From Actinomycetota bacterium (GTDB lineage: Bacteria; Actinomycetota; Acidimicrobiia; Acidimicrobiales; Ilumatobacteraceae): 47,124 nucleotides of DNA. The stretch lies in assembly GCA_016870295.1 (NCBI GenBank), contig VGBY01000001.1, positions 1 through 47,124 on the forward strand, in the 5' to 3' direction. The position numbers and the translations under genes are program-made. The notes under the pieces were generated by a model. It saw nothing but the letters and a program-made list of their open reading frames with translations. It ran no database searches and was not told the DNA's origin. Below, piece by piece: positions 2,415 to 37,556 of this stretch. The number at the start of each line of letters is the position of its first letter. Position 1 is the stretch's first letter.

Positions 2415-3334
2415 GCATCCCTCTGCAATCGCGGATCGGTTGCATCACGCAGCGCGTCACCGATGAAGTTGATGCACAGTGCGATGACCACCAGCGTGAG
2501 ACACGGGAACAACGCGAGATGCCAGAAGCCGGTGTTCACGGCGCCCTTGGCCTGCCCGACGAGGATGCCGAGCGACGTGGCCCCGTCGCCCGCCTGCGGT
2601 CCATAGCCGAAGAATGCGAGTGTTGACTCGCTGATGATTGCCGACACCACGGAGAACGTCAGCGCAACCATGATCGGGCCGATCGAATTCGGCAACAGGT
2701 GGCGTCGCACGATGTACCACCGGCTGGCACCGACTGCACGTGCCGCTTCGATGAACTCGCGCTCCTTCAAGGCCAACACTTGACCGCGCACGATTCGCGC
2801 AACCCCCATCCATCCGAAGATGGCGAACAGCACGATGATGAACCGCACCGAGTTGAGCTCCCCCGTCACTGGTTTCAGCCACGAGATACCGCCGATCATG
2901 TTTCGCATCACGAGCAAAGTGACGAGGAATGGGAAGGCCAAGAAGAGATCGGTCACGCGCATGACCACGTCGTCGAAACGCCCGCCGCGGAAGCCGGCAA
3001 CGGAACCAATCAGACAGCCGATTGCAACAGATATCAAACCCGAGAAGATGCCGATGATGAGCGACACGCGCACGCCGTAGATCAAGCGGCTGTAAAGGTC
3101 GCGACCGATGTCATCGGTGCCGAGCCAGGCGTTCGCCCGCGGTGAGAGGAAGTAGTTCGGTGGCGCCTGCACGGATTCGTTCACGCCGTAGCGGGCGGTG
3201 AATGGCGACAATGCCACGAAGATCACCAATGTCGCCATGATGAACACACTGACCACGGCGGCTCGGTGGCTGACAAAACGGTCGTACGCCATTCGTCGCG
3301 GCGAGATCGTCGGGAGTGCCACGTCGTCAGGCAA
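2411..3334 (-). CDS. ABC transporter permease (OppC/DppC-like)
   Basis: Multi-TM protein with the binding-protein-dependent transport EAA loop (FIEAARAVGASRWYIVRRHLLPN). Overlaps the neighbouring cistrons. Confidence 0.85.
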   Translation of the reverse strand: MPDDVALPTISPRRMAYDRFVSHRAAVVSVFIMATLVIFVALSPFTARYGVNESVQAPPNYFLSPRANAWLGTDDIGRDLYSRLIYGVRVSLIIGIFSGLISVAIGCLIGSVAGFRGGRFDDVVMRVTDLFLAFPFLVTLLVMRNMIGGISWLKPVTGELNSVRFIIVLFAIFGWMGVARIVRGQVLALKEREFIEAARAVGASRWYIVRRHLLPNSIGPIMVALTFSVVSAIISESTLAFFGYGPQAGDGATSLGILVGQAKGAVNTGFWHLALFPCLTLVVIALCINFIGDALRDATDPRLQRDA

Positions 3335-4301
3335 GGCGAATCCTCGGGTCGAGCCAGGCGTACGAGATGTCGGCGAGCAGGTTGAAGAACAGGGTCGAAG
3401 CCACGATGATCACCATCCATGGCATGAGCAGCGGAAAGTCACCTTCGCCGAACGCCGACAGGAAGTACTTGCCCATCCCCGGATAGCTGAACACATTCTC
3501 CGTGATGATCAAACCACCAACGATCGCTCCGACGTCGAGGGCTGCAATCGTGACGACGGGGATCAATGCATTACGCAATCCGTGCCGGAACAACACGCGC
3601 GCCTCGCTGATGCCCTTCGACCGGGCCGTGCGCATGTATTCGCTGTTCAGCACATCAAGCAGCGATGACCGCATGTAGCGCGAGTACACCGCAATGATCT
3701 GGATGGCGACGACAAACGTCGGCAGCACCATGTGCTTGAGCATGAGGCCGAGATCAAAACCCAGTTGCCCGGGTGGGTAGACGCCTGAGGTGGGAAACAG
3801 TGTTGAGCCGAACCAGCGACTCCAGTAGACCGCAAACAACAACTGGAAGAGAATCGCCGACACGTACGGCGGGATCGAGATGCCCACGAAGGCAGCGGTG
3901 TTCACGGCGACATCGCGCCGACCCCCTGGGCGCAAGGCGGCGAACACGCCGAGCCCGAGGCCGATGACGATGCCGACACTGCTCGCTGCAACACCAAGCC
4001 GGATGGTGTTGGCAAGTGCATCCTTCAGCTGCGGCCACACTTCGCGCGAGCCCTTGATGCTGCGCGGCCAATCGAGCGTGACGAAATTGCCCAGCCAACG
4101 GAAGTAGCCCCGCACAAAGTTCGGATCGAGGCCGTTCACCTCGATGTACTGCGCAATCTTGGCTTTGGAAGCCCGCGGATTGATTCGCTTGTAGCTCGCC
4201 ACCGGATCGGTGCCGATCCGCAGTGCAATGTACACGAGAAACGTGACGAAGATCAGCGTCGGTATCGCCCAGGCGAGGCGTCGCAACACGTACCTGAGCA
4301 C
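3327..4301 (-). CDS. ABC transporter permease (OppB/DppB-like)
   Basis: Six predicted TM segments. EAA-type loop YMRTARSKGISEARVLFRHGLRNALIP. N-terminus MLRYVLRRL is typical of OppB/DppB. Confidence 0.85.
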   Translation of the reverse strand: MLRYVLRRLAWAIPTLIFVTFLVYIALRIGTDPVASYKRINPRASKAKIAQYIEVNGLDPNFVRGYFRWLGNFVTLDWPRSIKGSREVWPQLKDALANTIRLGVAASSVGIVIGLGLGVFAALRPGGRRDVAVNTAAFVGISIPPYVSAILFQLLFAVYWSRWFGSTLFPTSGVYPPGQLGFDLGLMLKHMVLPTFVVAIQIIAVYSRYMRSSLLDVLNSEYMRTARSKGISEARVLFRHGLRNALIPVVTIAALDVGAIVGGLIITENVFSYPGMGKYFLSAFGEGDFPLLMPWMVIIVASTLFFNLLADISYAWLDPRIRLA

Positions 4302-4351
4302 GGGTCAAAACTACTTCAGACTGCGCTGCTCGTCACATGCCGCACAACGAA

Positions 4352-4393
4352 ACGGCGCGCAGGCCAAGCCTTGCGGCAAGACCTGCGCGCCGT
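4352..4393 (-). promoter_or_regulatory. Strong intercistronic stem-loop between the binding-protein and permease genes. Possible partial terminator or mRNA stabiliser.
   Basis: Perfect 12-bp GC-rich stem, acggcgcgcagg (4352-4363) pairing with cctgcgcgccgt (4382-4393), and the 18-nt loop can itself pair. A second 7-bp hairpin (accgttc-aat-gaacggt) lies at 4401-4417 just after the SBP stop. The trailing sequence is only weakly U-rich. Confidence 0.45.
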
Positions 4394-4425
4394 CGCGCGA
4401 ACCGTTCAATGAACGGTGCTCGTCC

Positions 4426-6174
4426 TTACTTGATGGCGACCTTTGGCTCGCCCTTCAGCAGGTTGGTGATGACGTACGCACCATCGTTGGTGGTGGCAAA
4501 CGCACCAGGCATGACCTGGTTGATCGTCGTCCAAACCATCCACGAGGAGTTCGCACACTCCGTCACCGGGTTCAAGCACTCTGGCCACTGCTCGGCGCCG
4601 ATGACGACTTTGCCGTCACCGTCGAGGTCGGTCCAGAGGTGGTTGTTGATGAACGAGGTGAAGTTGCGCAGCTCGGCATCAACCGGGCCACCCACCTTAT
4701 CCGTGCGCCAGAAACCCGACTTGGGGAACTGGAACAGCGGCAGCATCACGCTGTCCGCGGCCATCAACTTGAGCGCACTCTTGATCATTTCCGCACGCTT
4801 GGCTGCATCCGGCTCGAAGTCCGCATTGTGGAGCAAGTCGGAAGCTTCCGCGTTGCACCAGCCCTGCGAGTTCTGGCCTTGGTTGCTGTTTGCCTCTGTG
4901 GGGATCTGGTCACAGGTGAACGACGGCGTGAGGTAACCCGGGTCCGGCGGAGCGGTCGAGATATACATCGCCATGTCGTAGTCGAGGGCTGGCAGACGCT
5001 GCTGGAAGTAGCAGGCCGCATCGCAGTTGTCTGCGCGCACCTTGAAGCCGGCCGCATTGAGCAGCGGAATCAGGTAGGCCTGGGTGTTCTCGCGACGGGT
5101 GTTGCCCGTGTTGATGATCCAGCGGATGTCCGGCGCGGCACCGGTCGACGGATCGATCCAGTAACCATCGGCACCCTTGGTCCAACCGTTCTCGGTCAGC
5201 AGCGCTTCGGCGCCAGCCGGGTCGTATGCATTGGCGAATTCATCGCCATTGCAGTACGGGCCAGGCACCATCGGGCCACACTGCAGCGGCGATTCGCCAC
5301 CGAGCGGCACGTAGATCTGCTGGAAGAGCGCATCGCGGTCGATCGACTTGGAGAACGCTGCACGGAATACCGGGTTGGCGAACGGACCACACTTCTGTTG
5401 GAAGTAGAAGCCCTCGTAGTCACCACCGAATTCCTTCTTCAGGGTGATGTTCGGATCGGCAAACGCCTCTTCGATACCACCGAAGAACTGCGGGTAGGCG
5501 AAATCGATTTCGCCGGCCTTGAGTGCCGCGGCTTCCGTGTCGCTGTCAGCCAGCGGCACCATGACGAGCTGCTTGGCGACGGCCTTGTCGGCGCCCCAGT
5601 ACTTGTCGTTCGGTACGTAGACCACCTGGCTTGGGCTCCACGACTTCATCTTCCACGGGCGACCCGAGAAGCCGATGAATTCGGCAAAGTCCGCCGAGAT
5701 GTCGGACGTGTTCTCCACCGAGGATGCCTTGAGCAATCCACCGAAGAGACCCTTGTAGGGGCCGTAGACGCTCTTGAAGTCGATGACAACTTGCTTGTCG
5801 CTCGAGCCTGCGGCCACCGAGGTGATCTGGTCGTAGCCGACCGTGCTGATGGAGCCGGGCGTATTGAGCGCGGCTTCCCACGTCGCCTTGAAGTCGGCGA
5901 ACGTGATTGGTGAACCGTCTTCCCAGACCGCCTCATCGGCAAGGTCGTAGGTCACGGTCATGCCGGCACTGGCCGGCGGGGTGTAGCTGTAGTCGTAGGT
6001 GACTTCGGCACACTGTTCAAGCGTCGGATACGAAACTGGCTCAGCAGCCGGCTCCTCCGCCACAGTCTCCTCAGTCACGGCTTCTTCGTCGTCACTGCCA
6101 CCGCACGCCGACGCGACAAGCGCGACCGCGAACAGCGAAGCAGCGAAACGAATCGCCTTGCTGTGTTGCTTCAT
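4426..6174 (-). CDS. ABC transporter substrate-binding lipoprotein, family 5 (peptide/nickel type)
   Basis: 582 aa. Signal peptide with lipobox LVASAC followed by a GGSDDEE linker. Size and position at the head of the Opp/Dpp-type operon fit. SD-like ggggagg lies upstream of the ATG at 6174. Confidence 0.8.
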   Translation of the reverse strand: MKQHSKAIRFAASLFAVALVASACGGSDDEEAVTEETVAEEPAAEPVSYPTLEQCAEVTYDYSYTPPASAGMTVTYDLADEAVWEDGSPITFADFKATWEAALNTPGSISTVGYDQITSVAAGSSDKQVVIDFKSVYGPYKGLFGGLLKASSVENTSDISADFAEFIGFSGRPWKMKSWSPSQVVYVPNDKYWGADKAVAKQLVMVPLADSDTEAAALKAGEIDFAYPQFFGGIEEAFADPNITLKKEFGGDYEGFYFQQKCGPFANPVFRAAFSKSIDRDALFQQIYVPLGGESPLQCGPMVPGPYCNGDEFANAYDPAGAEALLTENGWTKGADGYWIDPSTGAAPDIRWIINTGNTRRENTQAYLIPLLNAAGFKVRADNCDAACYFQQRLPALDYDMAMYISTAPPDPGYLTPSFTCDQIPTEANSNQGQNSQGWCNAEASDLLHNADFEPDAAKRAEMIKSALKLMAADSVMLPLFQFPKSGFWRTDKVGGPVDAELRNFTSFINNHLWTDLDGDGKVVIGAEQWPECLNPVTECANSSWMVWTTINQVMPGAFATTNDGAYVITNLLKGEPKVAIK

Positions 6175-31456: not shown

Positions 31457-32764
31457 TCAGAAGCCGAGGCGCTCGGCGAAGTAGCCGATCAAACCGGCGA
31501 TCGGCACACGGTCTTGGGTCGTCGTGTCACGGTCGCGCACGGTGACCGCGCCATCTTCGAGCGAATCAAAGTCGACCGTGACACAGCACGGTGTGCCGAT
31601 CTCGTCTTGGCGTCGATAGCGACGACCGATGGCTTGCGTTTCGTCGTAGTCACACATGTAGCGGGCAGACAACGTGGCGAAGATGCTCTCAGCGAGCGGG
31701 GTGAGCGTGTCCTTTTTGGAGAGCGGCAGTACCGCAATTTGGTACGGCGCGATTCGCGGATGCAACCGCAGCACGGTGCGCGGCTCGTCGTTGACGATGT
31801 CCTCGTCGTAGGCAGCAAGGAGGAATGCCGCCATCGTGCGGTTCACCCCCGCCGCGGGTTCCACGACGTAGGGCACGTAGCGCTCGTTCGTTGCCTGGTC
31901 GAAGTAGTCGAGTCGCTGCCCGGAATGTTGCGAGTGCTGGGTGAGGTCGTAGTCGGTACGTTGCGCGATGCCTTCCAACTCCCCCCATCCCCATGGAAAC
32001 AGGAATTCAATATCGCAGGTGCCGGCGGAATAATGCGACAACTCGTCCTTGTCGTGCTCGCGTAGTCGCAGCATTTCACGCGGGACACCGTGGCTCACGT
32101 ACCAATCGAGCCGGGAGGTCTTCCAGTACTCGTACCACTGCGGACTCTCGCTCGGCGGGACGAAGAATTCGAGTTCCATCTGTTCGAACTCTCGAGTGCG
32201 GAAGATGAAATTGCCCGGCGTGATTTCGTTGCGGAACGACTTGCCGACCTGCGCGATACCAAACGGCGGTTTCTTGCGACTGGTCGCCAGAACATTGGTG
32301 AAGTTGACGAACATCCCCTGGGCGGTTTCGGGACGCAGGTACACCTCGGTGCCCGCACCTTCGATGGGGCCGGCATGCGTCTTGAACATGAGATTGAACG
32401 CCCGCGCCTCGGTGAATGCGCAGCCCTTCATCTTCTGCGGGCAATCGCGCGTCTCGAGTTGATCTTGGCGGAAGCGCCGCTTGCACACGGTGCAGTCAAC
32501 GAGTGGGTCACTGAAGTTCGCCAGATGGCCACTGGCCTCGAAGGTTTGCGGCGGATTGAGGATCGCGGCGTCGATGAGCACCACATCGGTGCGCTGCTGC
32601 ACGACGGCGCGCACCCAAGCATCCTTCACGTTGCGCAGCATCAAGGCCCCGAGCGGACCGTAGTCGTATGACGACCGGAAGCCACCGTAGATTTCGGCAC
32701 TGGGAAACGCGAATCCGCGGCGCTTTGCGAGATTGACGATCTGGTCCAAATCCTTCGCCGGCAC
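31457..32764 (-). CDS. glyQS: Glycine--tRNA ligase (dimeric class II, GlyQS type)
   Basis: Motifs RRGFAFPSAEIYGG and FRNEITPGNFIFRTREFEQMELEFF (class II motif 2 region), plus a C-terminal anticodon-binding domain. 435 aa. Confidence 0.93.
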   Translation of the reverse strand: MPAKDLDQIVNLAKRRGFAFPSAEIYGGFRSSYDYGPLGALMLRNVKDAWVRAVVQQRTDVVLIDAAILNPPQTFEASGHLANFSDPLVDCTVCKRRFRQDQLETRDCPQKMKGCAFTEARAFNLMFKTHAGPIEGAGTEVYLRPETAQGMFVNFTNVLATSRKKPPFGIAQVGKSFRNEITPGNFIFRTREFEQMELEFFVPPSESPQWYEYWKTSRLDWYVSHGVPREMLRLREHDKDELSHYSAGTCDIEFLFPWGWGELEGIAQRTDYDLTQHSQHSGQRLDYFDQATNERYVPYVVEPAAGVNRTMAAFLLAAYDEDIVNDEPRTVLRLHPRIAPYQIAVLPLSKKDTLTPLAESIFATLSARYMCDYDETQAIGRRYRRQDEIGTPCCVTVDFDSLEDGAVTVRDRDTTTQDRVPIAGLIGYFAERLGF

Positions 32765-32805: not shown

Positions 32806-33537
32806 TCAGCCGGCTTGCGGCGCCTTGAACAGCGCCGACGAACGAATGCGCCGCTCGAGGTGATGTTCCATCGCAGTACGCGCAAGATCCATCACTTCGC
32901 GCACCACGACGGTGGGTGTTTCGGCTCGTTGCAGCACGACTGCCACCCGACCATCGAGGATTGACTGCACGATGTTCATTGCTTCACCAGAGACTGCGAG
33001 CCCCCGCTTGTGCGTGCGGCATTGCGCGCCTCCCGCAACGATGTCAAAGGCGCACAAATCGTCGCGAGTCCCGCAGACGATGCATTGGTCGACACACGGG
33101 CCGACCCCTTCGGCGGCGAGCAGGCGCAACTGCAGTGCCGGCAAGACCAACGGCGAAAATGCAGAGTTCAGCTGACGAAGCGCACCGACCAACATGCGAT
33201 ACAAATGCGGGCTTGGTTCACGATCGTGCGCCATCTGCTCGACGACTTCACACATGGCCAGGCCGTCGGTGGTTGCTTCGAGGTTGCTGCGCAAGGAGTT
33301 GGCAATCTCCACGAGTTCCACTTGATTCACGACATCGAGGTTGCGGCCCCGATACAGCTGTACTTGCACGTGACTCAACGGCTCGAGTCGCGATCCGAAC
33401 CGCGAACCCGGTTTGCGCACGCCCTTGGCAACCGCGCGCACCTTGCCCGAATCCTGGGTGACGATCGTGATGATGCGGTCGGTCTCCCCCAACTTGTGGG
33501 TACGAACCACGACACCGACGTCCCGGTAGAGCGGCAT
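32806..33537 (-). CDS. recO: DNA repair protein RecO
   Basis: N-terminal OB fold (YRDVGVVVRTHKLGETDRIITIVTQDSGKVRAVAKGVR) and a zinc-finger-like CxxC...C region (CIVCG...C...C). 243 aa. The ATG overlaps the upstream stop by 1 nt. Confidence 0.9.
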   Translation of the reverse strand: MPLYRDVGVVVRTHKLGETDRIITIVTQDSGKVRAVAKGVRKPGSRFGSRLEPLSHVQVQLYRGRNLDVVNQVELVEIANSLRSNLEATTDGLAMCEVVEQMAHDREPSPHLYRMLVGALRQLNSAFSPLVLPALQLRLLAAEGVGPCVDQCIVCGTRDDLCAFDIVAGGAQCRTHKRGLAVSGEAMNIVQSILDGRVAVVLQRAETPTVVVREVMDLARTAMEHHLERRIRSSALFKAPQAG

Positions 33538-34109
33538 CAGGAATCGATTCCTCCGAAGCGTCGATCACGGCGAGCAAAGTCGTCGATGGCCATTTCGAGA
33601 TGTTCGGCATCCAATCCGCTCCATGGCGCGTCAAGGAACACGATTTCGGCATAGGCCAGTTCCCACACCAACGATGGCGGTATGTCAACCGCGCTACCGA
33701 GCACGACCACCAGATCGGGTTCACCTGGAGCCGGCGCCGAGATGGTTGCCGCCAACCGTTGTTCTGTGATGTGTGAGGCACCGATTTTGCTCGCCGCCCG
33801 CGCGATGCGTTCTTGTCCGTCGGCACAGAGATCGACGATGACCGTCACGCCGTGTTCGCCGAGCACGATGATGCGATCGGCGTATGGTTCACCGCCACAC
33901 TGGTCGCAGAGGGTCGCTCGGAGGTGCTCGACCTGCGACACGGCTCCCGGACCGTACGGAACAAGCGTCACCCACTCGGCTCCGCCACGCTGCGCCGCCT
34001 GCGCCAAGAGTACGAGGCGTTTCTTCCATTTCTCAGCGTCGGTTGCCGTCCATTCGGCGACGGTTCCTGCACACACCAAGATATGTGGGAGTGTCGACCG
34101 CGATACCAC
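33537..34109 (-). CDS. cis-Prenyltransferase (UppS) family protein, catalytically degenerate but retaining the C-terminal RxG motif
   Basis: 190 aa. The C-terminal half aligns by eye to UppS (PDLVVVLGSAVDIPPSLVWELAYAEIVFLDAPWSGLDAEHLEMAIDDFARRDRRFGG). The N-terminal DGNGRWA motif is replaced by CAGTVAEW, and the FS(S/T)ENW motif by VPYGPG. GTG start with a gagga SD. Confidence 0.65.
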   Translation of the reverse strand: MVSRSTLPHILVCAGTVAEWTATDAEKWKKRLVLLAQAAQRGGAEWVTLVPYGPGAVSQVEHLRATLCDQCGGEPYADRIIVLGEHGVTVIVDLCADGQERIARAASKIGASHITEQRLAATISAPAPGEPDLVVVLGSAVDIPPSLVWELAYAEIVFLDAPWSGLDAEHLEMAIDDFARRDRRFGGIDS

Positions 34110-34141
34110 CGTTACATCCTCGCACTAGCAAGTAGTTTCTG

Positions 34142-34843
34142 ATGGGCAACATGACATCGTCGGCAGCCGCTTCTCGGGTCGGGTCGGGTGCCCTGCACAT
34201 CGCCTGCATCATGGATGGCAACGGGCGTTGGGCCAAACGGCGCGGGCTGCCCCGCACTGCCGGACACACCGCCGGCGAAGAGGCGCTGGCCACGGTGGTG
34301 CGTGAGGCCGCCCAACGTGATGTGGGTTGGCTCACCGTCTTTGGCTTCAGCACCGAAAACTGGGTGCGGCCCCCTGCGGAAGTTCGTCACATCCTCGGGC
34401 TCCACCGAAAGTTGTTCGGACGCATCGAAGAACTCAACGCCAACAATGTGCGAGTCAACTGGATTGGTCGGCCCTTCGACGAACCAGGCTCGCGTACACC
34501 TGCCAACGTGCAGAAGGCGATTCGTCAGGCGATCGAAGACACGAAGCACAACACCGGCATGGTGCTGACCGTCGCATTCGACTACGGCAGTCGTGCCGAG
34601 ATCGTGCGGGCGGCGCGTCACGCGGCGGAATTCAGCCCGGGCGGTATCGCCGCCAATTTGTACGACGCCACGTTGCCACCGGTCGACGTGCTGGTGCGCA
34701 CCTCGGGCGAGTCACGTATCTCCAACTTCATGCTGTGGCAGGCCGCCCATGCCCGGGTGTATTTCACCGATTGCTCGTGGCCCGACTTCGGCGGTCGGCA
34801 ACTTGACGAAGCGATCGCACTCGCGCGAACGCATCGCGCATGA
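34142..34843 (+). CDS. uppS: Isoprenyl (undecaprenyl/decaprenyl) diphosphate synthase, cis-prenyltransferase, lacking the usual C-terminal RxG tail
   Basis: Catalytic motifs are present: IMDGNGRWA, GH, FGFSTENW, VRTSGESRISNFMLWQ. The protein ends ...LDEAIALARTHRA, directly at the position where homodimeric UppS enzymes carry R-E-R-R-F-G-G. The stop overlaps the dinG ATG (ATGA). Confidence 0.88.
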   Translation: MGNMTSSAAASRVGSGALHIACIMDGNGRWAKRRGLPRTAGHTAGEEALATVVREAAQRDVGWLTVFGFSTENWVRPPAEVRHILGLHRKLFGRIEELNANNVRVNWIGRPFDEPGSRTPANVQKAIRQAIEDTKHNTGMVLTVAFDYGSRAEIVRAARHAAEFSPGGIAANLYDATLPPVDVLVRTSGESRISNFMLWQAAHARVYFTDCSWPDFGGRQLDEAIALARTHRA

Positions 34844-36750
34844 CGGCGGCCGCGAAGAAGGCCACCCGCCTCTTGGAGCGGGTGCTCGCACATTTGGAGA
34901 ACGCCGAGCACCGCGACGGGCAAGCGGAGATGGTGCGCCACGTGGCCGACACGATTGAGGCGGGCGGCACCCTCGTGATACAGGCCGGTACCGGCACGGG
35001 CAAGACCCTCGGCTACCTGATTCCGATCCTCACGGCCGGGCAAACGGCAGTTATCGCGACCTACACCAAGGCTTTACAGGATCAACTGGCGAGCGTCGAC
35101 TTGCCGATGCTGCAAGCGGTGTGTGCCGACGATGACGAATTGGCGTTCACGTGGGCGGTGCTGAAAGGTCGCAACAACTATTTGTGTCGTCAACGCGCGT
35201 CGGAAATCGAGACGGGTAGTGATCAGTTGGATTTTGATGATGTATCGGCCACCGTGCAGAGGGAGGTACGCAAACTCGTGAAGTGGGCCGACAGCACCGC
35301 GACGGGTGATTCATCCGACGTGCCGTTCGCGTTCAGTGATGGCGCATGGCGCAAGGTGAGTCTGTCGTCAGATGAGTGCCCGGGTAAGGCGAAGTGCGAT
35401 TTCGGCGAAAGTTGCTTCACCGAACTGGCGCGGGAGCGAGCACATGGTGCGAACGTCGTCGTCGTCAACTTCAGTCTCTATGGCCTCGACCTGCAACATC
35501 AACGCGAGTTCCTGCCGCCCCACGAAGTGGTCGTGTTCGACGAAGTGCATGAACTCGAAGACGTCATTAGTGATACGGCCTCCGTTGTCATCACTCCGCG
35601 CAGCATCAGTAACGCAGCGGAGGTGAGTCGTAAGGCGGTCAGCAGTCAGAAGGTCGTCAACGCGCTCGCCAAGACAGCCACGGACCTCGATGAAGTACTC
35701 CACCGGCATGTCGGGGAGCGTTTCCGCGCGGCCTTGCCGCCCGATTTGGAGACTGCTCTGCGCCAGACCGCTGATCAATCGCGGCTCATTCTTGAGCAGA
35801 TCGAATGCTCTACCGACGAGAAGCCCGAAGCACTACGCGCCGAATCGACCCTCGAACGGTTGCAGCAAGATGTGGAAAAAGTGCTCGCCAGCGCGAGCGA
35901 CATGGTGAGTTTCGTCTCCGAGAACCGCAACGCGCCCCGTTTGACCGCTGCACCGTTGCGGGTCAACGGTGTCTTGGCCCCCGTCTGGACCGATGGCGTC
36001 GCCATCTTGACGAGCGCCACCATCCCACCGGGACTGCCGCGGCGTCTCGGGCTGGGAATCGAGGCCGACGACATCGTGCACGTAGCCAGCCCGTTCGATT
36101 ATCGGCGGCAGTCGCTCTTGTACCTCGCCAACGACCTGCCCGAACCGAACGCGCCAGATCGCAGCGACGCCGTGCATCGTCGCATCGCTGAACTCGTCAC
36201 GATGTCGAACGGCTCGGCACTCGTGCTGTTCACGAGTTGGTCGGCGTTGCATGCCGCGGTTGATTCACTGCGCGGAAACCTCGGCGATGGCATCGAGTTG
36301 TTGGTGCAAGACGACATGCCCAAGAAGATGCTGCTCGATAGTTTCCGGGACAATATTCGCTCCTGCCTCTTTGCCACGCGCGGTTACTTCCAGGGTGTCG
36401 ATGTACCGGGCGACGCGCTGCGCTTGGTCATCATCGACAAGGTGCCGTTCCCCGCTCTCAAGGATCCGCTGCTCGATGCTCGCCGCGAGCAAGTCGGCAA
36501 GGAGTCGTTCGTCGCGATTGATGTGCCGATTGCTGCAGCTTCACTGGCTCAGGCCGCCGGCCGTCTCATTCGCACCAGCACCGACCACGGAGTCGTAGCC
36601 ATCCTCGACCCACGACTCGCCACGCGTCGCTACAAGTCGTTGGTGCTGCATGGTGTGTCGCACATGCCCGAGACCAGTTCATTGGCCGAAGTTGAAGAGT
36701 TTTACATCAAGCGCCAGGCAGAAAGCGATAGCCAAGACCACGATTCGTGA
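34840..36750 (+). CDS. dinG: ATP-dependent DNA helicase, DinG/XPD (Rad3) family with an Fe-S cluster domain
   Basis: Walker A AGTGTGKT, DEVH box (VVFDEVHELED), four Cys in the Fe-S insertion (NYLCRQ; DECPGKAKCDFGESCF), and C-terminal helicase motifs (QAAGRLIR). 636 aa. Confidence 0.85.
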   Translation: MTAAAKKATRLLERVLAHLENAEHRDGQAEMVRHVADTIEAGGTLVIQAGTGTGKTLGYLIPILTAGQTAVIATYTKALQDQLASVDLPMLQAVCADDDELAFTWAVLKGRNNYLCRQRASEIETGSDQLDFDDVSATVQREVRKLVKWADSTATGDSSDVPFAFSDGAWRKVSLSSDECPGKAKCDFGESCFTELARERAHGANVVVVNFSLYGLDLQHQREFLPPHEVVVFDEVHELEDVISDTASVVITPRSISNAAEVSRKAVSSQKVVNALAKTATDLDEVLHRHVGERFRAALPPDLETALRQTADQSRLILEQIECSTDEKPEALRAESTLERLQQDVEKVLASASDMVSFVSENRNAPRLTAAPLRVNGVLAPVWTDGVAILTSATIPPGLPRRLGLGIEADDIVHVASPFDYRRQSLLYLANDLPEPNAPDRSDAVHRRIAELVTMSNGSALVLFTSWSALHAAVDSLRGNLGDGIELLVQDDMPKKMLLDSFRDNIRSCLFATRGYFQGVDVPGDALRLVIIDKVPFPALKDPLLDARREQVGKESFVAIDVPIAAASLAQAAGRLIRTSTDHGVVAILDPRLATRRYKSLVLHGVSHMPETSSLAEVEEFYIKRQAESDSQDHDS

Positions 36751-37396
36751 TGATGTAGCGCGGATCGTTGGGCGAATCCTCGATCTTCACGCGCAGGCGC
36801 CGAATGTGCGCATCGACCAGCCGGCTATCACCGAGATAGTCGTAGCCCCACACACGCTCGAGTAGTTGATCGCGACTCAACACCATGTTCGGGTGGTCGG
36901 CGAACTCAATGAGCAAGCGCAGTTCGGTCTTCGTCAGTGGTACTTCGACGCCGGCCTTCTTTACGATGCCCGCCTCGCGATGCAACTCGATGTCTCCGAA
37001 TCGCGAGACATCGAGTGAGCGTCCCGATACTTCCCGCACGAGCCTCCGCAGGGCGGCTCGAATACGTGCCGCCAGCTCCTTGGTGTTGACCGGCTTCGTG
37101 ACATAGTCGTCGGCGCCGGCTTCGAGCCCAGCCACGAGATCGTGCGTGTCGGTTTGGGCAGTAACGATGATGATCGGCACATTGCTCTTCTGGCGGATTT
37201 CGCGACAGACCTCGAATCCCGATACATCGGGTAGTCGCAAGTCGAGCAGTACGAGGTCGGGCTGTTCGCTGGCGGCCAGCGAGAGACCCGTGCGGCCGTC
37301 GGGGGCCTGCATGATGTCGTAGCCCTCGTCCTCCAGCGCCAGGCTGAGCGCCGCGCGGATACCGGCGTCGTCTTCAACGAGAAGTACTTGTGCCAT
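36707..37396 (-). CDS. OmpR/PhoB-family response regulator (MtrA-like)
   Basis: True start MAQVLLVEDD at 37396. REC motifs DLVLLDLRLPD and a winged-helix output domain (RVWGYDYLGDSRLVDAHIRRLRVKIE...RGLGYRF). The 3' end overlaps the convergent dinG by 44 nt. Confidence 0.88.
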   Translation of the reverse strand: MAQVLLVEDDAGIRAALSLALEDEGYDIMQAPDGRTGLSLAASEQPDLVLLDLRLPDVSGFEVCREIRQKSNVPIIIVTAQTDTHDLVAGLEAGADDYVTKPVNTKELAARIRAALRRLVREVSGRSLDVSRFGDIELHREAGIVKKAGVEVPLTKTELRLLIEFADHPNMVLSRDQLLERVWGYDYLGDSRLVDAHIRRLRVKIEDSPNDPRYIITNRGLGYRFLPGA

Positions 37397-37556
37397 CGCG
37401 AAGCATTCTGCCAAAGAAATCCGAATCGTTACACAAAACGCACAGTTCGACAGGCTTGCCGTCATCTTGTGCGATAACTGTGGTGAGCGAGTCGGCGCGG
37501 GTCATGCTCCCCCTTGGCCCCGCCGGCTCGACATTCTCGTAAGCCATGCTTGATGT
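37397..37556. promoter_or_regulatory. Divergent promoter region between the response regulator and sensor kinase genes
   Basis: At 160 nt this is the largest intergenic gap in the window. It is visibly less GC-rich (aaagaaatccgaatcgttacacaaaacgcacagttcgacagg). A CAGAAT -10-like hexamer lies 10 nt upstream of the regulator ATG. No promoter was rigorously mapped. Confidence 0.3.

Follow-up and report, generated by a model that had tools for sequence, protein, structure and literature searches.

A stretch of 47,124 nucleotides from an actinomycetotal bacterium of the family Ilumatobacteraceae (contig VGBY01000001.1 of assembly GCA_016870295.1; hereafter the window) carries two genes of the undecaprenyl diphosphate synthase (UppS) family, here named cat and deg. 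An original prediction, made by reading the window, had described them as divergent, with start codons 32 nt apart, and both open reading frames (ORFs) were found where it had placed them (Table 1). We propose that their products probably pair, one subunit each, in a heterodimeric cis-prenyltransferase producing a polyprenyl diphosphate lipid carrier. According to a 2026 review, all characterised bacterial cis-prenyltransferases are homomeric; heteromers are treated as a trait of eukaryotes and of some Euryarchaeota, and their origin is discussed together with eukaryogenesis. No case of a bacterial heteromeric cis-prenyltransferase was found in the literature searched. The view that cat and deg form an independently evolved bacterial version of this enzyme is well supported by the comparative evidence presented here.

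A canonical UppS has its catalytic residues and its C-terminal RxG motif on one polypeptide, and this is true of neither cat nor deg. The original prediction placed the catalytic motifs on one protein and the RxG tail on the other, and a residue-by-residue alignment of 22 canonical UppS, 11 cat and 11 deg sequences (E. coli numbering) confirmed the split. Seventeen positions (D26, N28, G29, R30, R39, H43, S71, E73, N74, W75, R77, R194, E198, R200, S202, N203 and F204) never vary among the 11 cat sequences, and none is retained by any of the 11 deg sequences; in the canonical enzymes they are conserved in 22/22 cases, or in 21/22 at N28, R39 and F204. The reverse holds for Y211, E213, R241, R242, F/Y243 and G244, which are invariant in the 22 canonical and the 11 deg sequences and are replaced or absent in cat. 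At position 213, cat has K, R, Q or H, the exception being a basal lineage (L041) that keeps E. In the deg protein of the window, D26 is replaced by G15, R30 by E19, R194 by V136, R200 by D and S202 by P144; the R39-H43 region is deleted, and the region of S71 and N74 (FSxENW) reads PYGPG. A profile alignment had been suggested as a check on the original prediction, and its outcome, the loss from deg of the catalytic Asp and Arg residues of E. coli UppS, likewise bore out complementary loss.

In the terms of Grabinska et al., the catalytic subunit of a heteromeric cis-prenyltransferase carries Regions I-V and lacks RxG, as cat does; in its accessory partner, as in deg, Region II is missing and Regions I and III are degenerate, while the first His of Region I, the Region V interface and RxG are kept. 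This partition of motifs matches the heteromeric division of labour to which the two genes had been likened from the outset. Neither protein qualifies as a canonical UppS, although cat passes the cut-off of TIGR00055 (199 bits, cut-off 109.55).

Of the 219 positions of the Pfam profile PF01255, cat matches 1-209 (217.7 bits, E 1.8e-64; gathering score 27), and the NCBIfam matches stop about 10-18 profile positions short of the model end. The closest solved structure is the long-chain cis-prenyltransferase of Thermobifida fusca (7CPN, E 1.6e-52), and the next relatives include the E. coli and Mycobacterium tuberculosis enzymes; alignments to solved UppS take in cat from end to end and finish 10-30 residues before the termini of the targets. 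Residues D26, R30, R39, H43, S71, N74, R77, R194, R200 and S202 are all present in cat and are invariant across its family. After Region V, cat reads WQAAHARVYF in place of the canonical WQxAYAExxF, and in the multiple alignment with E. coli UppS the cat stop falls one residue short of R242-F-G244. Motif positions and alignment thus agree with the first description of cat as a protein with all catalytic motifs that ends in ...ALARTHRA, without RxG.

The match of PF01255 to deg is limited to profile positions 115-219 (42 bits, E 1e-10; gathering score 27), and NCBIfam matches are confined to the C-terminal third of the models. For the C-terminal half of deg the closest solved structure is again 7CPN (E 5.8e-11), with alignments that reach the RRFGG of the targets. 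When the deg and cat families were aligned globally with hhalign, residues 1-183 of deg covered residues 11-233 of cat (probability 95%, E 6.5e-9), about 27 residues corresponding to cat 108-138 being missing from deg. Because the alignment spans this whole length, deg is a complete cis-prenyltransferase domain in compacted form rather than a fragment. Its AlphaFold2 model had a pLDDT (predicted local distance difference test) of 88.4 and a pTM (predicted template modelling score) of 0.87, residues 186-190 alone falling below a pLDDT of 50. A Foldseek search with this model returned cis-prenyltransferases as all of the top 50 PDB matches (TM about 0.57-0.65, 16-19% identity); no NgBR or Nus1 chain was among these 50, and no NUS1 chain appeared at E <= 1 in the PDB sequence search.

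In a database of 5.8 billion proteins, 788 of 1318 word-sharing candidates were relatives of deg at E <= 0.001, the nearest being about 190-197 residues long and coming from metagenome-assembled genomes (MAGs) of Ilumatobacteraceae, Acidimicrobiia and Actinomycetota. A hidden Markov model (HMM) built from 87 members matched 49 clusters (50% identity) at E <= 1e-30, mostly over their full length. The tail RRxRRFGGxD is invariant in the HMM and alignment of these 87 homologues, and WELAYAE is invariant in the deg family. Within Region I, H9 of deg is the first residue of the region and W20 corresponds to E. coli W31. The alignment also agrees with the first description of deg, which had it keeping the AYAE segment and the RRFGG tail beside degenerate N-terminal motifs.

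How two such chains might cooperate is suggested by the human enzyme DHDDS/NgBR. The C-terminus of NgBR crosses the interface and forms part of both substrate sites of DHDDS, the backbone amides of L291 and G292 binding phosphate at the isopentenyl diphosphate (IPP) site, and a salt bridge in trans joins NgBR R259 to DHDDS E81 (PMC7573591). Transverse contacts of the tail are likewise present in homodimeric cis-prenyltransferases, and the DHDDS homodimer has a kcat about 400-fold lower than that of the heteromer (PMC7573591). Counted back from the C-terminal K293 in the checked NgBR sequence, R259 lies within WHIRLTE, which aligns with E. coli W207-E213 and so with WELAYAE in deg. E. coli UppS carrying G244A does not complement, Giardia G238A is virtually inactive, and mutations in RxG change the chain length of the product (bioRxiv 10.1101/139675).

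By analogy with NgBR, whose tail and R259 segment reach the active site of DHDDS in trans, the elements lost from cat (Y211, E213 and the tail) are those that serve the active site of the partner, and deg has lost elements of its own active site. The lost trans elements would still be required in a cat homodimer but not in a cat:deg dimer, which favours the heterodimer; we regard this complementary loss of trans elements as the strongest internal argument for it. In the proposed enzyme, cat would provide the sole working active site, with the chain tunnel and both diphosphate sites, allylic and IPP. deg would be a catalytically dead paralogue bound to cat at the conserved Region V interface, and its WxxAYAE segment and RRFGG tail would complete the cat active site in trans, a task that in homodimeric UppS falls to the partner chain. 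Each cat:deg dimer would then possess one live active site. Formation of the heterodimer, the trans action of the tail and the dependence of cat activity on deg are all points that we infer from the sequences.

A scan of one genome per GTDB species gave 45 loci with a deg homologue (L001-L045). Wherever the flank was visible (41/41 species-level loci), the gene order was the same, with cat and the helicase gene pointing one way and deg, recO and glyS the other. RxG was absent from 39/39 cat genes with a complete 3' end, which stop 0-7 variable residues past the LDxAL helix; the co-occurrence to be checked according to the original prediction was thus found throughout. The deg termini all read RRFGG, or RRFGS in three loci, followed by x-D-S/A/T. 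Three distant loci (L085; L168, from Acidimicrobiales bacterium mtb01, GCA_004379135.1; and L169) have the same arrangement and a tail-less cat. On a metagenome contig (L089) cat also stands beside deg and recO; the disruption of this cat ORF from about residue 159 onwards means that its C-terminus cannot be scored.

As a control, we used a near-random sample from a metagenome scan anchored on generic UppS motifs. Among 77 UppS ORFs with complete C-termini, 75 ended in [RN]xG, one in KFG and one was tail-less. The tail-less ORF (L088) is 69% identical to cat, precedes the helicase gene and belongs to the clade. The scan yielded mostly unrelated canonical UppS, the only clade members being L088 and L089. 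Both cat and deg are under purifying selection, with a median pairwise dN/dS (NG86) of 0.062 for cat, 0.073 for the C-terminal half of deg and 0.19 for its N-terminal half.

Several points weigh against the heterodimer. MM_0014 of Methanosarcina mazei lacks RXG and is nonetheless an active homodimer, which means that loss of RxG is not strict proof of inactivity; this protein keeps a conserved, trans-acting TLGG tail. In the N-terminal half of deg, H9, G15, W20, W28, P51 and R101 are invariant or nearly so (C13 is well conserved, not invariant), with maintenance of the fold as their only explanation so far. Evolutionary distances of cat and deg are correlated (mirror-tree correlation 0.878; partial r 0.635 controlling for recO, helicase and glyS) and weakly support pairing, but the recO-helicase pair reaches a partial r of 0.666, so that the signal is not specific to cat and deg. 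In neighbour-joining trees, cat and deg do not come out as sisters. Finally, a further cis-prenyltransferase paralogue may be present elsewhere in the genomes; none was found in the 47-kb window, the sequence covered amounting to about 8-47 kb per genome.

We considered the possibility that cat is a self-sufficient, tail-less homodimeric UppS and that deg is a pseudoenzyme that has taken up a different function, such as one connected with recO, a regulatory one or the sensing of substrate. The activity of MM_0014 and the invariant residues in the N-terminal half of deg would fit this, as would the coupling of deg to recO: the TGATG overlap pointed out in the original prediction can be read directly in the sequence, and the deg stop overlaps the recO start in 40/44 loci. 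Yet MM_0014 retains a conserved trans tail, whereas the C-terminus of cat is variable in both length and sequence. The absence from cat of Y211 and E213, which are invariant in 22/22 canonical enzymes, is hard to square with a homodimer, and deg is most strongly constrained in its interface segment and RRFGG tail, parts that are relevant only beside a cis-prenyltransferase active site. Moreover, uppS adjoins recO in the outgroups as well; the adjacency is therefore ancestral, and the coupling of deg to recO inherited rather than new. We regard a self-sufficient cat as unlikely.

Somewhat less probable still is that the heterodimer forms but that deg is a dispensable modulator of activity or chain length, a separate complete UppS making the essential carrier. 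Many Actinomycetota have more than one cis-prenyltransferase, and they often carry a short-chain Z-farnesyl diphosphate (Z-FPP) synthase, which would not be redundant with a long-chain enzyme. M. tuberculosis has two cis-prenyltransferases, Rv1086 and Rv2361c; the structures of both are among the PDB matches of cat. A modulating role would also accord with the altered product chain length of RxG mutants (bioRxiv 10.1101/139675). On the other hand, the pair fills the slot of the only uppS seen at the outgroup locus, cat is as constrained as a housekeeping enzyme (dN/dS 0.06), and among the loci examined there was none with cat but without deg.

An artefact or decay, with cat truncated by a frameshift or misassembly or deg a leftover pseudogene, is very improbable and already refuted by the comparative data: although frameshifted helicase or glyS genes in L041 and L059 testify to assembly errors (beyond which the idea has only its prior possibility), more than 40 species-level genomes, assembled independently, and additional metagenome contigs share the truncation and deg, no RxG remnant occurs in any frame near the cat stop in 38/39 loci, and deg combines a dN/dS of 0.07-0.19 with 49 clusters at 50% identity and E <= 1e-30. 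The remaining locus, L037, has an out-of-frame RRFG, which we treated as chance since its sister locus L034 is without it. Past the cat stop of the window, the other two frames read ...RERIAHDGG... and the helicase N-terminus, both without RxG. A frameshift near 34830-34845, which would have undone the original prediction, was excluded by the conserved truncation and by the helicase start overlapping the stop, and deg as a decaying pseudogene was rejected on its dN/dS and family size.

The ancestral state of the locus is visible in relatives. Seven outgroup Acidimicrobiales loci (L052, L058, L061, L065, L067, L074 and L051, the sequence of the last ending before glyS) have a single complete uppS, with the terminal sequence RRDRRFGGVD, flanked by the helicase gene and recO-glyS. 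A complete uppS also lies upstream of recO-glyS in L046 and L048, with no helicase gene visible on the sequence examined. Since the outgroups carry a single uppS in the same slot, deg is the positional counterpart of the ancestral uppS, with cat as an extra, inverted copy, an arrangement consistent with duplication in place and subsequent complementary loss. Within the Acidimicrobiia, a single homodimeric uppS between the helicase gene and recO would have been duplicated in place, with inversion, and each copy would then have shed what the other still supplied. In neighbour-joining trees cat and deg are each monophyletic (100% bootstrap) and sit on long branches; deg is placed beside the UppS of Acidimicrobiia without bootstrap support, and the relation of cat and deg to the outgroup enzymes is left open. 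As the trees do not settle how cat and deg are related, it is synteny that carries the duplication scenario.

Two loci may show the order in which trans elements were lost. In the basal L041 (cat 3193-3873, deg 3974-4513), cat reads WQSMGAEVYF and so retains the equivalent of E213, while the RxG tail is already gone; this locus may be an evolutionary intermediate. The cat gene of L085 (4247-4954) has A at the position of E213.

Descent from the NgBR/Nus1 lineage is argued against by the complete uppS in the outgroup slot and by the closeness of deg to bacterial homodimeric UppS. The closest relatives are not NgBR or Nus1, the best PDB sequence matches being actinobacterial and E. coli UppS. 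The pair would accordingly be analogous and not homologous to NgBR/DHDDS, with an independent origin. We give even weight, for and against, to the fuller scenario in which a large clade of abundant aquatic Acidimicrobiia (Ilumatobacteraceae, including the acIV lineages, and relatives) swapped a housekeeping homodimeric UppS for an obligate heterodimer with one active site, which would have arisen by duplication in place, would be convergent with the eukaryotic and archaeal DHDDS/NgBR architecture down to the substitutions in Region V, and would have left intermediates among the sequences.

The same split is seen in human DHDDS/NgBR, in yeast Rer2 or Srt1 with Nus1, and in plant CPT/CPTBP, where the catalytic subunit has Regions I-V and no RxG. 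As in deg, the eukaryotic accessory subunit lacks Region II, has Regions I and III in degenerate form and keeps the first His of Region I, the Region V interface and RxG. The parallel extends into Region V, where WQTSHSC of DHDDS and WHIRLTE...RLGK of NgBR correspond to WQAAHAR of cat and WELAYAE of deg. Unlike eukaryotic NgBR, deg has no N-terminal membrane-anchoring extension, only 8 residues preceding its first beta-strand. Unlike DHDDS, cat lacks the C-terminal helix-turn-helix, and a dimer of heterodimers of the human type is not expected. The pair differs from the eukaryotic ones also in being independent in origin and in having adjacent, divergent genes, and its product is presumably a medium-chain bacterial carrier, not a dolichol precursor.

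A further group, from another domain of life, is formed by the archaeal heteromers, Methanosarcina acetivorans MA3723/MA4402, M. mazei MM_1083/MM_0618 and Archaeoglobus fulgidus Af1219/Af0707. The original prediction knew of such a heteromer in one archaeon, a count that must be raised to at least these three species. Like the proposed cat:deg pair, the archaeal heteromers are prokaryotic and soluble and combine a tail-less catalytic subunit with an NgBR-like subunit bearing RxG; the archaeal ones make glycosyl-carrier lipids of C45-55. Compared by description, the accessory subunits differ, the archaeal ones being assigned to the NgBR/Nus1 group whereas the origin of deg is an actinobacterial UppS of the recO locus.

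Among solved structures, M. tuberculosis Rv2361c (decaprenyl) and T. fusca 7CPN (dodecaprenyl diphosphate synthase) are the best relatives of cat and of the C-terminal half of deg. In these homodimeric actinobacterial enzymes the catalytic residues and RxG are on one chain and each dimer has two active sites, whereas one is predicted for cat:deg. The uppS-recO neighbourhood is shared with the homodimeric actinobacterial enzymes; in M. tuberculosis, we take Rv2362c and Rv2361c to be recO-uppS neighbours. The homodimeric actinobacterial long-chain type would represent the ancestral type of the pair. Bacteria also possess two-subunit prenyl elongation in the heteromeric hexaprenyl and heptaprenyl diphosphate synthases, such as HepS/HepT of B. 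subtilis (PMC13586052). These differ from cat and deg in fold and in chemistry, being all-alpha trans-isoprenyl diphosphate synthases with DDxxD, and their small subunit is not a degenerate copy that gives a tail in trans. A search of the literature for work on E. coli UppS E213 or Y211 found nothing.

In databases, deg is labelled "undecaprenyl diphosphate synthase family protein" or "hypothetical protein", and cat is labelled as a decaprenyl or undecaprenyl synthase. With the present annotation the split goes unseen, and attempts to reconstruct metabolism or to express a single gene in another host would be misled. If cat and deg do form a heterodimer, the heteromeric architecture would evolve readily and repeatedly from a homodimer with a trans-acting tail, and the pair would be a clean natural case of a homodimer turning into a heterodimer by subfunctionalisation or constructive neutral evolution, with the ancestral state visible in sister lineages. 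It would likewise offer a small, soluble, anchor-free model for tail activation of the NgBR type, with a bearing on disease mutations in DHDDS and NUS1.

Table 1. Features of the cat-deg locus, in coordinates of the window.
Feature	Position	Strand	Remarks
deg	33537..34109	-	190 amino acids, GTG start; predicted non-catalytic accessory subunit of cis-prenyltransferase
cat	34142..34843	+	233 amino acids, ATG start; predicted catalytic cis-prenyltransferase subunit, without C-terminal RxG tail
Divergent intergenic region cat/deg	34110..34141	.	32 nt between the start codons
cat Region I motif DGNGR	34214..34228	+	E. coli D26-R30
cat Region III motif FSTENW	34346..34363	+	E. coli F70-W75, including S71 and N74
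cat Region V motif RTSGESRIS	34697..34723	+	E. coli R194, E198, R200 and S202
cat C-terminus ALARTHRA and TGA	34817..34843	+	Ends at the position of E. coli R241, before R242-x-G244
deg Region I remnant HILVCAGTVAEW	34050..34085	-	H9 and W20 kept; D26 -> G15, R30 -> E19
deg interface segment WELAYAEIVFLDA (W149-A161)	33627..33665	-	Y153 and E155 correspond to E. coli Y211 and E213
deg C-terminal tail RRDRRFGGIDS	33540..33572	-	RxG is R184-F-G186
recO	32806..33537	-	TIGR00613, E 1.8e-44; ATG overlaps the deg stop (TGATG)
DinG/YoaA-like helicase gene	34840..36750	+	NF053712, E 5.8e-137; ATG overlaps the cat stop (ATGA)
glyS (glycyl-tRNA synthetase)	31457..32764	-	Downstream of recO; synteny anchor; named by sequence reading

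Direct reading of the window places GAGGA, a Shine-Dalgarno sequence, 7 nt before the GTG of deg, and reveals no obvious one before cat. A scan of 33300-35100 for consensus promoters of the sigma-70 type and for terminators found none. Because the gap between the genes is only 32 nt and cat lacks a Shine-Dalgarno sequence, the promoters of cat and deg may have to sit inside the adjoining coding sequences, or the cat mRNA may be leaderless. In related loci the gap is mostly 32-144 nt, with a range of 7-222 nt, and the overlap of the cat stop with the helicase start is kept in 27/38 loci.

Along its full length the helicase fits the YoaA model NF053712 with 458 bits, under the curated cut-off of 680; it belongs to the DinG/YoaA family, its subtype being uncertain, and most genomes of the clade have it translationally coupled to cat. 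The glyS label of the window ORF comes from reading the sequence; PF00587 and PF03129 were seen in the syntenic gene of L085 and L168. Next to the helicase gene lies a two-component system (window 36707-37465, minus strand, and beyond; also L085 1-2285 and L168 4413-7420), with genes for an OmpR-type response regulator, a HAMP/HisKA kinase and a Germane-domain protein. As these are kept in the distant L085 and L168, the syntenic block is larger than the five genes analysed.

A second degenerate UppS-like family (P0341, P0373, P0296 and P0314; contigs L081-L084, with L081 184-789, L086 434-1093 and L087 1251-1895) has HVAWV for HVAIIMDGN, then GGxRRVPDLLxWExAYSE and an RRYGG tail. The P0341-type gene lies just upstream of recO, with a short ORF in between (about 85 amino acids in L081-L086, 133 in L087); no catalytic partner of this family is visible on the short contigs L081-L084, L086 and L087. 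Two further, partly degenerate UppS paralogues are of normal length: P0383 has HVALIADD for IMDGN, keeps NW(S)RP and ends in an RRFGQ tail, and P0376 has IMDGIDRW and DFSSDVS. Among bacteria, degenerate cis-prenyltransferase copies may reach well beyond the cat/deg clade.

In two of the loci, helicase, glyS or uppS genes are split over frames (L041 661-3007 and 6101-7789; L059 1381-3704 and 3472-4359); these are probably uncorrected assembly indels and not real pseudogenes. Seven records (L003, L010, L011, L030, L036, L040 and L046) are titled Bifidobacterium breve, Ferrithrix thermotolerans, uncultured Bifidobacterium sp. or Bifidobacteriaceae; on MAG records with a locus of the Acidimicrobiia type, the Bifidobacterium and Ferrithrix titles are evidently wrong public taxon labels.

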